Shown here one piece after another: positions 5,970 through 47,914 of a stretch of DNA of 64,000 nt. The DNA comes from an uncultured Clostridia bacterium (GTDB lineage Bacteria; Bacillota; Clostridia; TANB77; CAG-508). A program made the translations under genes and the position numbers. The stretch spans positions 22,025 through 86,024 of the forward strand of contig CALXFD010000001.1 of the NCBI GenBank assembly GCA_944387495.1, given 5' to 3'. Each line of letters starts with the position of its first letter. Positions within the stretch are counted from its first letter, which is position 1. The notes under the pieces were generated by a model. It had not been told where the DNA came from and did not search any database. It saw nothing but the letters and a program-made list of their open reading frames with translations.

Positions 5970-6290
5970 CTATTTTGTAATACTATCTGTAACTGGTATT
6001 AATTTCAAAATTCCACTCATTTCAAAAATCCTCTTAATACTACTTGTTAGATTTGTTAATTCCAAATTACCACCTAACATCTTCACAAACTTATATCTCC
6101 CTATTATTAGGCCTATTCCCGCACTATCCATAAAAGTAACGCTATCAAAATCAAATACAACTCTCTTAGGCATATATCTTTCAATCTCATAATCAGCTTT
6201 CCTCCTTATCTTTTGAACACTATAATCATCAATTTCTTCTGTAATCCTAAATACCAGTAGCTTGTCCCTTTCATAAAAAACCGTTTCCAT
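5970..6290 (-). CDS. spoIIAA: anti-sigma F factor antagonist (STAS domain)
   Basis: STAS pattern (FMDSAGIGLIIGRY). Real start taken at METVFYE, preceded by AAGGAGG. The longer track ORF runs into repeat element A1. Confidence 0.85.
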   Translation of the reverse strand: METVFYERDKLLVFRITEEIDDYSVQKIRRKADYEIERYMPKRVVFDFDSVTFMDSAGIGLIIGRYKFVKMLGGNLELTNLTSSIKRIFEMSGILKLIPVTDSITK

Positions 6291-6315
6291 AACTACCTCC
6301 TTCTTTTCCTTTACT

Positions 6316-6344
6316 ATTATAAAACTTTTTACATTATTTTCCAA
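6316..6344 (-). promoter_or_regulatory. possible promoter of the spoIIA operon (-35 TTGGAA, 17 nt, -10 TATAAT)
   Basis: Hexamers read on the minus strand about 25 nt upstream of the spoIIAA RBS. Sequence match only. Confidence 0.3.
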
Positions 6345-6377
6345 TAGCAAAATATTAGAAGTTTTGTCGAATAGAAA

Positions 6378-6644
6378 TTTTTTTGGATATAATAGTTTTA
6401 ATCTTACTAGTGGCTTTACAGGGGATACTATTTTATAAAATTTATGAAATGACGAATGCGACCGAAAATAGCCGTACGCATTCTTAGCAACAAGTAAATG
6501 AGGGCGCGTCCTCACGAGAGGCTCGTTTACTTTTGATTAGAATGCGTAGGCTATGAAAGGGAAGCCGAGGAATTTCATAAATTTTATAAAATAGTATCCC
6601 CTGTAAAGCCACTAGTAAGATTAAAACTATTATATCCAAAAAAA
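6378..6644. repeat. Type A hairpin-enclosed GC-rich module, copy 1
   Basis: Perfect 73-bp inverted repeat (6378-6450 / 6572-6644) around a 121-nt core (59 of 121 G+C by my count). The 3' arm abuts the ytfJ stop codon at 6645. Confidence 0.9.
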
Positions 6645-7262
6645 TTATTCATCATCGTCTAATGTTTCATCATATTCATACTCATAAGTTACTTCCTCTT
6701 CTGGCATAATATCTTTTCTAACTTTTTCCGTACTCCTTTTAATCTTATCACCTTGTTTTATCTGTTTTTCTTCTACCTTTTCAATCTTCTTTTCTGCATT
6801 ATTCTGATTTTTTTGAATTTGATTAATTATCTTTTTAGTTTCTTCCTTTTTATTTTGTATACACCTATTCATCATATTATTTGCTTTTTCCATTAAATCT
6901 GGAATATAGTCCAATAACTTATCTAATGAAGAAGTATGGTTTACCGGCATTAATTTCACATTATTTGATTGAATCACCAAAAATGCAATTGGATTAATCG
7001 TTACACCTGCACCTGAACCTCCTCCAAATGGTAACCTATATTGAACTTGTTCTTCTTTATCTTTTCTTGTGTATTCGTCAACAGTCTCCCCCTTAAACTC
7101 ACTACCTCCTGCTGCAAATCCAAATGATACTTTTGATATTGGTATTATTACTATATTATTAGAAGTTTCTATTGGTTCACCTATTATTGTATTTACATCT
7201 ATCATATCTTGGATACTATTCATAGCCGTAGTCATAAGACCTTCTATTGGATGTTCGCTCAT
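6645..7262 (-). CDS. ytfJ: YtfJ/GerW family sporulation protein
   Basis: N-terminus MSEHPIEGLM...IIGEPIE...IIPISKVSFGFAAGG is typical of YtfJ. K/E-rich tail. Confidence 0.8.
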   Translation of the reverse strand: MSEHPIEGLMTTAMNSIQDMIDVNTIIGEPIETSNNIVIIPISKVSFGFAAGGSEFKGETVDEYTRKDKEEQVQYRLPFGGGSGAGVTINPIAFLVIQSNNVKLMPVNHTSSLDKLLDYIPDLMEKANNMMNRCIQNKKEETKKIINQIQKNQNNAEKKIEKVEEKQIKQGDKIKRSTEKVRKDIMPEEEVTYEYEYDETLDDDE

Positions 7263-9175: not shown

Positions 9176-9203
9176 AAAAAAAAGCAATACTTACTATTGC
9201 TTT
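9176..9203 (-). terminator. Rho-independent terminator downstream of pnp and element B1
   Basis: Minus strand reads AAAGCAATA-GTAAG-TATTGCTTT followed by a T run. Confidence 0.75.
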
Positions 9204-9215
9204 ATTAGTAGAGTA

Positions 9216-39923: not shown

Positions 39924-42830
39924 TTATTTTACATCTTTAAATTGTTTATTCTTTTTATATAATATAACAGCTATTATACTTAATAAAATAATTATAAAAG
40001 GAATTATTTTTCTTATTCCTGCATTTGGCAAAATATTTTTGCTTACACTATTATCTATTTTTTCTGAATTTATATTTTGATTTGTATTATCTGATTGTGT
40101 TTCTTCACTAGTTCTAGCTATAATTTTAACTTCAAATGTTGCTATTTTTCCTTCATATTCTACTTTTAATGTATTTGTTCCTATTGTAGTATTATTAAAT
40201 CCTGTTACTTTTACATTTTCATTTGTTAGGCTTATTGTATCTGTTGTTTCGTCATTATATGTTACTGTTATTATTCCTCCTGTTAAATCTATATCCTCAT
40301 AATTTTGTATGTAGCTAATTTTAGTTGGTAATGTCGTTACTTCTATACTGCTTATTTGTTTTGATATTATATCTACTTGAAATGTAGTTGTTATTCCTTC
40401 ATACTCTACTGATAATGTATTTTTTCCTATTTTGCTGTTATCAAATCCTGTTACTTTTACATTTTCATTTGTTAAACTTATTGTATCTGTTGTTTCATCA
40501 TTATATGTTATTGTTAATATTCCGCCTACTAAATCTAAATTTTCATAATTTTGTATATAGTTTGTTTTAGTTGGTAGTGTTGTTACTTCTATTCTACTTA
40601 CTTGTTTTGATATTATATTCACATCAAATGTAGTTGTTATTCCTTCATACTCTACTGATAATGTGTTTTTTCCTATTTTACTATTATCAAATCCTATTAC
40701 TTTTACATTTTCATTTGTTAAGCTTATTGTATCTGTTGTGTTATCGTTATATGTTATTGTTAGTATTCCACCTACTAAATCTAAGTTTTCATAATTTTGT
40801 ATATAGTTTGTTTTAGTTGGTAATGTTGTTACTTCTGTTTTTGTTATATTTTTCTCTCTTTCTGTCGCATATGCCATTGAAGGTCTAAGTACTGCATAAT
40901 AATCTTTTCCAAGTAATGTTCTTAAATCTGTAAATTCATTTGTTATATTTTTCAAATTTCCTTTTTCATCGATTCCTATAAATCCTGCCATTTCTTTTCC
41001 ATCAACTGTTATTTTATCTGATTCACTAATATATATCAAATAATAAATTCCATCTTCTGTTTCATATGTTACATTTTCATTTGCTGTTTGGGTATTTTTA
41101 TAAACTAAGACATCTCCTGTTTGGAAATTTTCTTTATAAATATTATCCGCTCTACTGCTTCTTCCTCTTTCTTTTGGTACTGTATTTTCCCAAAATTTTA
41201 AATAGACTTCATTTGAAGTATTTGTATATAAAGCTCCCCAATAATTACTTACTACTAAATTATAGAATTTATTTTTTTCATTTAAATAAGCTGTTGGTCT
41301 TAGACTATTTCCTTCTGGATAATATTGTGTTCCAGCTCTCGTTACTATCAAGTCTGTTATGTCTAAATCTTTAAGTTCAAGAATAATTCCTAGGTCTTTG
41401 TTATATATATTAGAAATTAATTCTTGTCCTTTATAAGTTTTTGAATTTAATAAATTTTCTGTTTGTGACTTAATCTTATTTTTTTCAGTGTCATTAAGAT
41501 TACTAGAAATAGTATTTTTTAATGTTGCTGATGGTATATTTGCAACTGTCCCTGTTGAAACAATCTCTTTTCCTATATCATTCAAATTATTCTTTACTTT
41601 TACTGTATACTTTATTTCTTTTGTTTTTCCTGGTTCTAAATTAGATATTGTCCAGGTAATTGTATTGTTATCTACTTTTCCATTATTTGCGTCTTTAATC
41701 TCTACATACTCAGAAATATTTTCTACTACATTAAAATCTTTATATGTTTCTTTACTATTATTAACAATTTTTATTGTATATTCCAAAGAATCATTTAGCC
41801 CTACAACAGAATTATTAAAAACATCTACTGTTTTTTCAATATCTATTGAACTATATTCAATTCTGCTTAAAGATTCTTCTGAAATTTCGTAATCTTTTAA
41901 AGTTCTTCCTGTACATATATATGAAGTATTTGCACTTGCATCACTTTTAAATTCTGTATCATAATATTTTCCTGTATATTCTCCATTTTCATCTTTAAGT
42001 AAAGGTCTTAAAATTGCAAAATAAGATGTATTTCTCATATTGTATAATAGTGAAGTTCTTGTTTTATCACTTGATATTTGATATGTATTTGCCAAATATA
42101 GTTCTCTAAATGTGCCTTCTGTAATTCCTGTATTTTCATTTGGTATTTCTCCATAACTTAATCCTTTTGTGATTTTTGTGGTTTTCATTTCATATTGAGA
42201 GTTTGATTCACGTATAATGGCATCTATTGGGTTTCCATCAGAATCATATATTATATCATATACAAGTAATGCATGTCCTGCTGAGCCTGTATGATAGCAA
42301 ATAATGTCCCCTACTTGTAAATCATATTCTGTTAAAAGTTGTTTGGCATAATTAGCTCTTCCTTCTGTTGTTGATAAATCTATATTTTTTTGATTGTTTT
42401 TATTGTCATAATATACTGTTTTTCCAGCATCATCTTTAGTTTTTTGCCAGTATTCTATAATATCATTTGTTTTTATGTTATCTTTGTCATAATACTTTTC
42501 TGCATATGCTATTATTTTATGTGTTATTTCTGGAAGTTGTATTCCAAATGATTGATAATATACTGAATATGTAAAATCACTACATACACTATAAATAGTG
42601 TTTTGATTAGTTGCTTGCTCAGGCGGATATAAAAATGACTTTCTATACTCACAGTACTGAGCAAATTTGCCTTTATTATAATAAGCATTTGCTACTTCTT
42701 GAATTGCTCTTTGTTCTGTTGTTGAACCAGTAGTAGCTGTACTATTTGCAATAGATTTTAATTTTACAGTAAAATTTACACTTATTATAAGTATTAAGAT
42801 TATTAAAAATTTTTTTATTATTTTTTTCAT
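39924..42830 (-). CDS. large cell-surface protein with sortase-type C-terminal anchor
   Basis: Signal peptide and three tandem repeats of about 82 aa. C-terminal LPNAG, hydrophobic helix and KKNK tail. Confidence 0.7.
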   Translation of the reverse strand: MKKIIKKFLIILILIISVNFTVKLKSIANSTATTGSTTEQRAIQEVANAYYNKGKFAQYCEYRKSFLYPPEQATNQNTIYSVCSDFTYSVYYQSFGIQLPEITHKIIAYAEKYYDKDNIKTNDIIEYWQKTKDDAGKTVYYDNKNNQKNIDLSTTEGRANYAKQLLTEYDLQVGDIICYHTGSAGHALLVYDIIYDSDGNPIDAIIRESNSQYEMKTTKITKGLSYGEIPNENTGITEGTFRELYLANTYQISSDKTRTSLLYNMRNTSYFAILRPLLKDENGEYTGKYYDTEFKSDASANTSYICTGRTLKDYEISEESLSRIEYSSIDIEKTVDVFNNSVVGLNDSLEYTIKIVNNSKETYKDFNVVENISEYVEIKDANNGKVDNNTITWTISNLEPGKTKEIKYTVKVKNNLNDIGKEIVSTGTVANIPSATLKNTISSNLNDTEKNKIKSQTENLLNSKTYKGQELISNIYNKDLGIILELKDLDITDLIVTRAGTQYYPEGNSLRPTAYLNEKNKFYNLVVSNYWGALYTNTSNEVYLKFWENTVPKERGRSSRADNIYKENFQTGDVLVYKNTQTANENVTYETEDGIYYLIYISESDKITVDGKEMAGFIGIDEKGNLKNITNEFTDLRTLLGKDYYAVLRPSMAYATEREKNITKTEVTTLPTKTNYIQNYENLDLVGGILTITYNDNTTDTISLTNENVKVIGFDNSKIGKNTLSVEYEGITTTFDVNIISKQVSRIEVTTLPTKTNYIQNYENLDLVGGILTITYNDETTDTISLTNENVKVTGFDNSKIGKNTLSVEYEGITTTFQVDIISKQISSIEVTTLPTKISYIQNYEDIDLTGGIITVTYNDETTDTISLTNENVKVTGFNNTTIGTNTLKVEYEGKIATFEVKIIARTSEETQSDNTNQNINSEKIDNSVSKNILPNAGIRKIIPFIIILLSIIAVILYKKNKQFKDVK
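40118..40840 (-). repeat. three tandem 246-bp coding repeats inside the surface protein gene
   Basis: Protein repeats EVTTLPTK(T/I)(N/S)YIQNYE...VEYEG. The antisense ORFs at 40388 and 40634 are near-identical and 246 nt apart. Confidence 0.9.
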
Positions 42831-47608: not shown

Positions 47609-47720
47609 ACCTATCCCTCTTTCTTTTTAGATTTGTTTCTACATAGATTATATCTTAACATTCCATATTTTTCAACAATTTTTTCAAAAAAACTTTACTA
47701 TTATAAATATTTGTAGAGTA

Positions 47721-47887
47721 GTTCAAAAGGTTAATATATAAATATTTTTTTATTTCTAAATACTGCGTAAGCGACCAAACGAGCGACAGCGAGTGCGATT
47801 GGAGCAACCTACAATTTATTCTTTCAGAGGTTGCGACACACAAAGTATTTAGAAATAAAAAAATATTTATATATTAACCTTTCGAAC
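47721..47887 (-). repeat. Type B hairpin-enclosed GC-rich module, copy 2
   Basis: 44-bp arms (47721-47764 / 47844-47887) with one A/C opposition (47725/47883) that becomes G-U on the minus strand. The 79-nt core differs from copy 1 at 3 positions. Lies 27 nt after the gpr stop. Confidence 0.9.
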
Positions 47888-47914
47888 GGCCCATTATTTT
47901 TTAACTCAAACTTG

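Follow-up and report, generated by a model that had tools for sequence, protein, structure and literature searches.

Type A, a rare palindromic intergenic repeat of an uncultured Clostridiaceae lineage, and the possible rebuilding of its long arms by template switching

We describe Type A, a rare non-coding repeat in the chromosome of an uncultured, spore-forming Clostridiaceae lineage (from the gut) with a GC content of ~26%. Small palindromic intergenic repeats are a known kind of element, of which Type A is a member with unusual details. With roughly even confidence we take it to be a palindromic repeat of the MITE, REP or Correia kind, of which the arms have been re-symmetrised and extended by template switching. 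Its unit would consist of three parts (a constrained rod core of 121 nt, AT-rich inner arms of ~37 nt and short non-complementary ends), and the long, perfect, locus-specific arms would be secondary products that arose at the DNA level. Template switching or arm-to-arm conversion would overwrite one side of the hairpin with the reverse complement of the opposite side, which could re-symmetrise the stem, extend it into the local flanking DNA and flip the core. We infer this mechanism from a comparison of sequences.

The window (the whole stretch of 64,000 nt that was analysed, with a GC content of ~26%) is part of a Clostridiaceae chromosome and includes sporulation and housekeeping genes (spoIIAA/AB/sigF, ytfJ, pnp, polC and a U32 peptidase gene). 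It holds two copies of the repeat, both of which are carried by all contigs of the same species with 0-3 SNPs. In copy 1, two arms of 75 nt each (6376-6450 and 6572-6646, neither assigned to a strand) are 100% complementary and enclose 121 nt; the initial annotation was right about the perfect pairing, yet its arm length of 73 nt (6378-6644) falls 2 nt short on either side. The inverted repeat reaches into the TAA stop codon of ytfJ (6645-6647), within which the right arm ends; a continuation into the ytfJ coding tail is not significant (p ~0.3). On the left, the element is limited by the conserved spoIIA upstream region (6290-6375, minus strand), which contains a TTCGACA heptamer (6365-6371) followed by TTGGAA-17-TATAAT at 6344-6316, and of which window positions 6290-6372 align with relatives that do not have the element. 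Copy 1 fills the entire space between the ytfJ stop codon and this conserved region. Its core, a GC-rich rod with purine-rich internal loops, is located at 6451-6571 on the plus strand, the more stable and more purine-rich of the two. The inner ~38 nt of the left arm are a diverged homologue of the family left arm, and the outer ~35 nt are present only at the ytfJ locus of the window and in one variant allele of that locus (L032/L033, see below). The right arm is a perfect inverted copy of the left arm and occupies the place where other copies have a family-typical right arm.

Copy 2 has its core at 17680-17800 (plus strand). As annotated before, it is identical to the core of copy 1 at 119 of 121 positions, the difference being CCGAAAAT versus CCGGGAAT, and a 32-mer taken from the core occurs exactly 2 times in the window (against 0 expected from shuffles). 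The core is enclosed by family-typical inner arms at 17643-17679 (37 nt, of which the outer 32 are perfect) and 17801-17837, neither assigned to a strand; the perfect run of 32 nt that had been reported within them is indeed present. Beyond the arms lie conserved, non-complementary ends on the plus strand: GCACAGATTCGGTCA at 17628-17642, common to the L001 and L020 copies described below, and GGGCAACATAT at 17838-17848, of which the equivalents are GGGCAATAT in L020 and GGGCGATAT in L032. A weak outer inverted repeat, without strand, pairs 17602-17615 with 17858-17876 and is marginal (p ~0.03). Left of copy 2, polC consists of two overlapping ORFs (13609-14856 and 14840-17620); since gene calls of other strains also give a piece of ~900 amino acids, this split is not a one-off sequencing error.

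Searches beyond the window, as proposed in the initial annotation, turned up three further copies (L001, L020 and L032/L033), which makes five copies in five flanking contexts. We label these A1 (copy 1), A2 (copy 2), A3 (L001), A4 (L020) and A5 (L032). A3 comes from a scan of GTDB species representatives; it belongs to the MAG of an uncultured Clostridiaceae and is flanked there by the dnaK-dnaJ operon on one side and an Alg14-like gene on the other. A4 is more diverged (111-114 of 121 core positions identical) and lies upstream of a small ORF. It was found via a spurious ORF, from a search with six-frame peptides of the core that otherwise yielded only an extended SpoIIAA call; a search of 1.84 billion representatives with the same spurious ORF matched only itself. 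A5 is a variant allele at the ytfJ locus, in a lineage that is 96% identical to the window at the nucleotide level in the flanking genes.

A covariance model of the core detected no extra copy in ~170 kb (window, extensions and relatives), and none either in 203 kb of sequence from ten related genomes, which have an identical S15 protein in common. Comparison of orthologous spacers showed the dnaJ-Alg14 intergenic region of a relative to be empty, as are the ytfJ-spoIIAA intergenic regions of five relatives, and the frequency of the element amounts to about two copies per 80 kb. Because ~370 kb of related and own-genome DNA is without further copies and the syntenic spacers are empty, the family is low-copy, restricted to one small lineage and acquired instead of ancestral. 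Given that no target-site duplication or autonomous partner was found, and no insertion for which a close relative has a cleanly empty site, it is the distribution that argues for mobility. There is no transposase gene adjacent to the element. Rfam searches in gathering and E-value modes assigned no family (two tRNAs are all that passes the gathering threshold in the window), and the sub-threshold matches over the element concern spurious eukaryotic families. BLAST against phages and plasmids gave no match, nor did pattern scans of IMG/VR; a scan of JGI metagenomes gave five matches, all attributable to chance, in contigs of 62-66% GC. An apparent deletion of the core in one contig (L006) proved to be an artefact of scaffold Ns. 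In metagenome assemblies of this Clostridiaceae lineage, Type A elements mark synteny breakpoints and contig breaks.

The arms had been described as unrelated between the copies and, accordingly, the element as the opposite of a MITE. It holds that the arms differ between copies and are complementary within each of them. They are not unrelated, however: four of the five copies share ~52 nt per side. A2, A3, A4 and the right side of A5 have in common an arm of ~37 nt plus a non-complementary end of 11-15 nt, and because they share both arms and ends the repeated unit can be set at ~225 nt, arms included. Its left end reads GCACAAATTCAGTCA (also given as GCACAAATT...) and its right end GGGCRAYAT; these ends are not inverted repeats of each other. 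The contrast drawn with MITEs is not supported as stated, as A2, A3, A4 and, on its right side, L032 carry the arms as part of the repeated unit. For copies 1 and 2 it is correct that only ~17 nt of the arms are shared, although a weak homology can be traced to ~38 nt. Folding of whole elements gives -108 to -151 kcal/mol.

The rod fold proposed for the core was reproduced, at -47.1 kcal/mol for the plus strand (z = -5.8) and -40.1 kcal/mol for the minus strand (z = -5.2). Helix 1 pairs 6468-6484 with 6538-6554, helix 2 pairs 6492-6502 with 6522-6532 (one U.G pair included), and the tip hairpin CCTC-ACGA-GAGG (CCUC-ACGA-GAGG as RNA) is located at 6510-6521 on the plus strand, as first annotated. 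GAATGCG occurs twice in the core, again in agreement with the initial annotation. The alternative pairing of its 5' copy with CGCATTC is unsupported, since L020 shows no covariation: there the helix has become TGCATTC/GAATGCA and the 5' copy is an unchanged GAATGCG, so that this pairing would still be possible via G.U.

The five cores are identical at 111-120 of 121 positions. Helix 2 has its U.G pair in all copies, which also keep two bulges of a single base and the purine-rich internal loops, of which the one adjoining the arms reads GA-C-GA opposite GA-G-GA. Among the five copies only L020 is informative on covariation in the core. In this copy the central C-G of the arm-adjoining loop is replaced by G-C and one C-G pair of helix 1 by U-A, and the five other core changes sit in loops or remove a bulge, so that the structure is preserved throughout. 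The plus strand is 60% purine and folds better than the minus strand in every copy, by 4-7 kcal/mol. The window and L032 differ at 1 of 194 nt in the element, against 21 of 618 nt in ytfJ (P ~0.01). Because of these asymmetries, the structure-preserving changes and the low divergence, the core is under constraint as a single-stranded fold of the plus strand, either as RNA or as ssDNA and serving either the host or the propagation of the element itself.

Within the core, the internal-loop purine triplet at core positions 14-16 (window 6464-6466 and 17693-17695) is GAA, GGG, GGA or AGG, and three strains (L001, L022 and L023) differ in it at a single locus, at a background divergence of ~0.5%. 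Position 107, in the opposing loop, also toggles between A and G. No conserved ORF was found in the element copies, and a small peptide from ATGAAAGGG in the core was rejected (no Shine-Dalgarno, and neither length nor sequence is conserved). A likeness of AGCCGTA(C/T)GCA to domain 5 of group II introns, and of the tandem G.A motifs to a kink-turn, was not upheld, as Rfam gives no match and the bulge is absent or on the wrong side.

The properties of the core could also be read in favour of a stable structured RNA gene, for which the duplex arms would serve as an RNase III processing stalk that releases the core in an rRNA-like manner. Such a gene would account for a highly conserved core in which all changes preserve structure, for the strand asymmetry that is kept (the U.G pair, the purine loops with their tandem G.A potential and the better fold of the plus strand) and for an element that is more conserved than the neighbouring coding DNA. 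In addition, four of the five copies have the plus strand of the core running in the same direction as the downstream gene, and the arms would give perfect duplexes of 32-75 bp, a long flanking duplex being present in copy 1 (75 bp) and copy 2 (32 bp). Nonetheless, no conserved promoter or terminator delimits a transcription unit, copy 1 is antisense to both its neighbour genes and flipped relative to L032, and no Rfam family is assigned. Relatives are entirely without the element, which is therefore not a housekeeping RNA. The stalk is further weakened by the arms themselves: the duplex is not common to all members, since L032/L033 persist with poorly complementary arms and strains carry uncompensated arm SNPs, and the arm pairs that covary do so without G-U intermediates (see below). 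On balance of these sequence comparisons the stalk RNA is weakened to an unlikely, if still viable, candidate.

Evidence for template switching comes from the pattern of arm changes. In an alignment of the core with the 37-nt arms, 73 pairs were scored and 100% of the cells are paired. Two-sided changes are seen in 18 of the 73 pairs and one-sided or G-U changes in 0; these values were reached by 0 of 500 shuffles, and controls in which the partner was slid by 1-3 positions gave at most 3 such two-sided pairs. L020 moreover has a 1-nt insertion in one arm that is matched in the other arm. Because there are no G-U intermediates and the indel is matched, arm-to-arm templated copying is favoured: both features are predicted by templated copying and not by stepwise compensation at the RNA level, and the former fits better. 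Uncompensated SNPs are found at 6424 (half of the strains), at 17643 (three strain contexts) and at two positions in L001, and the arms decay by such ordinary SNPs between copying events. Template switching during replication is known to create and repair perfect hairpins; a single switch produces a perfect reverse-complement repeat, simultaneously fixes several mismatches and indels, and is able to invert the loop (PMC8794818, PMC5941160).

A second line of evidence is the comparison of copy 1 with L032/L033. After the ytfJ stop codon, L032/L033 has the identical left arm of 73 nt, then a core in the opposite orientation relative to ytfJ, followed by a family-type right arm. This right arm is only partly complementary and makes no long inverted repeat (fold -78 kcal/mol, z = -4.3); copies with non-complementary arms, which the initial annotation would have counted against its reading, therefore exist in part. 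Copy 1, on the other hand, is without the family right arm and the GGGCRAYAT end, and its right side is the perfect reverse complement of the left. The perfect arms of copy 1 are thereby shown to be the derived state. Relatives keep ytfJ adjoining spoIIAA, and L032 instead has a DUF6514 gene downstream. As the relatives retain ytfJ next to the conserved spoIIA upstream region, this adjacency is ancestral, and the L032 arrangement is therefore a rearrangement with its breakpoint at the element.

Two histories can be considered for copy 1. In the first, one template switch in the window lineage would have copied the core and the left side in reverse complement, so that the right arm was replaced and the core flipped in the same event. 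The second fits as well: the arms were perfect at an earlier stage, the core was flipped by recombination between them, and L032 is a recombinant with another family member. This history still requires a flip of the core, and both involve symmetrisation at the DNA level together with a flip. Strong conservation of the core, as well as that of the left arm between lineages, would also fit a functional RNA. If template switching is the correct explanation, which is read here from the end states of two alleles and not from a tree reconstruction, the window and L032 alleles would be a natural before-and-after pair, in which a 75-bp perfect hairpin was built, the loop flipped and half of a repeat element replaced in one lineage. 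Template switching would also explain how a palindromic repeat comes to have seemingly unrelated arms without any exotic transposition chemistry.

Further outwards, three copies have locus-specific inverted repeats, which measure 56 nt (93%) in L001 and 32 nt (84%) in L020 and are formed by the outer ~35 nt in copy 1. Alignment scores were compared with those of 4000 control flank pairs (maximum 14). The scores of A3 (43), A1 (37) and A4 (19) were each reached by 0 of 4000 controls, A2 scores 9.5 (p = 0.03) and A5 scores 8, which is not significant (p = 0.17). The outer arm of L001 takes in the T-tract of the upstream gene's terminator, together with a portion of its stem, and consequently represents local DNA. 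In the L022 strain, the arm matches the partner arm at both positions that are mismatched in L001, from which it follows that the arms of L001 were once nearly perfect and are now decaying.

It might be argued that such arms result from insertion, either into the centres of existing palindromes such as terminators or with inverted target duplications generated by transposition. The outer repeats of L001 and L020 begin exactly at the unit ends (...CAAAA / unit / TTTTG...), they are significant in three copies (copy 1 included), and the L001 arm overlaps the upstream terminator; at the unit boundaries of A2, A3 and A4 there is no direct repeat, and the flanks are inverted (CAAAA ... TTTTG). Still, perfect palindromes of 64-112 bp without spacer are absent from the DNA of relatives (with no comparable inverted repeats in L017, L019 and L024), the outer repeat is only marginal in copy 2 and not significant in L032, and the arm of copy 1 replaces part of the element, not merely target DNA. 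We know of no bacterial transposition mechanism that yields inverted target duplications. Insertion is in our opinion a doubtful explanation of the arms. Equally doubtful is that the core is a functional RNA or plus-strand ssDNA, recognised by machinery that spreads the element and makes the arms out of local DNA (a novel class of mobile hairpin element with inverted target duplications), or else a new small RNA released from a processing stalk that renews itself. Finally, an inverton, with the inverted repeats as recombination sites and the orientation of the core controlling a neighbour gene, is very improbable, for although the core of the window lineage and that of L032/L033 are oriented differently with respect to ytfJ and contigs often break inside the element, the orientation differs between lineages only (10 of 10 same-species contigs, from several assemblers and with k = 141 included, have the same one), no promoter-like site was found inside the core and no recombinase gene beside any copy, the inverted repeats vary between copies, unlike recombinase-specific sites, and contig breaks are expected at any long inverted repeat.

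Returning to the template-switched repeat, its possible function can be considered from its position. If transcribed through, the element would fold into a hairpin of 270-340 nt, and a long hairpin duplex of this sort would be a substrate for RNase III, as with Correia elements (PMC2649163). In relatives, the ytfJ-spoIIA space holds a hairpin followed by a T-run, which is terminator-like by eye and was not flagged by the terminator scanning tool, whose limits are exceeded by the 15-nt loop. In the window, the terminator-like signals in this space are restricted to weak core tip hairpins with a T-rich tail, on both strands. Judged by position, the element probably replaces the ancestral terminator-like hairpin and acts as a 3'-end or insulator hairpin. 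Since copy 1 lies directly upstream of spoIIA, in the space of that hairpin, it may influence read-through into the sporulation operon. Among the relatives' ytfJ-spoIIAA spacers, the terminator-like hairpin has arms of 43 nt (84%) in L041 (16718-16818) and a stem of ~8-10 bp in others (such as L043, 16680-16730); this difference may reflect further stem growth in the clade.

Two other modules in the window, type B and type C, have the same architecture as Type A, which points to a lineage-wide tendency to build long hairpins. Type B (9216-9382 and 47721-47887) has arms of 44 nt and a GC-rich core of 79 nt without a rod-like fold; over its full length of 188 nt (9203-9390 and 47708-47895), non-complementary ends included, it is 90% conserved. 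Where the arms of one copy differ from those of the other, each change is balanced on the opposite side (GG>TT with CC>AA, and an indel in shifted position), and copy B1 is located in the pnp 3' UTR, before a canonical terminator. Type C (2471-2754) is single-copy, with 87-nt arms at 99% (one G.T) and a core of 110 nt; 5 nt separate its end from the stop codon of an M23 peptidase gene, and its core loop carries two SNPs in a second strain. A hairpin at 11593-11697 (47-nt arms, 83% complementary, 11-nt loop), located between rpsO and pnp, may, by analogy, be a pnp leader hairpin of the kind that RNase III cuts in other bacteria. Three tandem copies of a 246-nt unit, 81-85% identical, are located at 40119-40856.

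To the right of the window, in the same genome, rpsN (S14) and rpsH (S8) are separated by an insertion of ~260 nt in some strains and not in others (L026 5613-5926 versus L028 5870-5926). It contains an imperfect hairpin with 45-nt arms around a short GC-rich loop, as well as a 60-nt direct duplication, and the empty site reads TGGTAAAATCAATTTTAAAGAAGATG. A short motif, TGCGTARG (CYTACGCA when read on the opposite strand) or CGTACGC, is shared by the otherwise unrelated cores of types A, B and C and by this insert, which may be due to chance or to a shared recognition site; TGCGTARG is the only thing that cores B and C have in common with core A, and they were rejected as its relatives. Genes for an Rpn-like PD-(D/E)XK nuclease or putative transposase, 89% identical to each other, are found just left of the window (L029 12610-13590) and at L028 16531-17487. 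These genes are multi-copy in the genome, one is present in some strains only, and no evidence links them to the element as a mobilising partner.

In comparison with known systems, Type A is closest in kind to short non-coding intergenic repeats with inverted-repeat ends and a conserved core, such as CREE/NEMIS of Neisseria, ERIC, RUP and bcr1 of B. cereus. CREE-type repeats are likewise found at gene ends, vary in presence between strains and form hairpins when transcribed; those of CREE are bound or cleaved by RNase III and can change how neighbouring genes are expressed (PMC2649163). However, CREE has >100 copies per genome, a fixed terminal repeat of 26 bp and a TA target duplication, whereas Type A has about two copies per 80 kb, no target duplication seen, an unrelated sequence, much longer stems (32-75 bp perfect) and outer arms that are locus-specific or regenerated. 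As in MITEs, the copies are dispersed, non-coding and variably present between related genomes. Inner arms of 37 nt are conserved in A2, A3, A4 and the right side of A5, but the outermost ends of the unit do not form an inverted repeat, and in copy 1 the arms have been replaced; direct target-site duplications are absent from the boundaries of A2, A3 and A4. REP/BIME elements with RAYT are imperfect palindromes of 20-40 nt, present in high copy number and associated with a Y1 transposase gene, whereas Type A has a unit of ~225-340 nt, a low copy number and no Y1 transposase gene beside it.

Outside this group, the RNase III stalks of rRNA likewise form a long duplex from the sequences that flank a structured RNA, but Type A is absent from close relatives, changes orientation and includes copies with poorly paired arms, and its duplex is a predicted one. 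Yeast mitochondrial GC clusters and the repetitive hairpin-forming elements of sponges (PMC2800124) are also GC-rich hairpin islands with a patchy distribution in AT-rich intergenic DNA; the organelle clusters are short (30-60 nt), numerous and without long AT-rich perfect arms. The arm changes themselves are most comparable to those of template-switch hairpins (Monttinen and Loytynoja 2022, PMC8794818; Lavi et al. 2018, PMC5941160), which show the same replacement of one Watson-Crick pair by another without G-U. The published cases deal with short inverted repeats or with short stems, of rRNA among other genes; the event in Type A is read from two alleles and not from a phylogeny. Type A, with stems of 32-75 bp that flank a mobile-looking repeat, would extend template switching well beyond the short stems for which it has mainly been documented so far.
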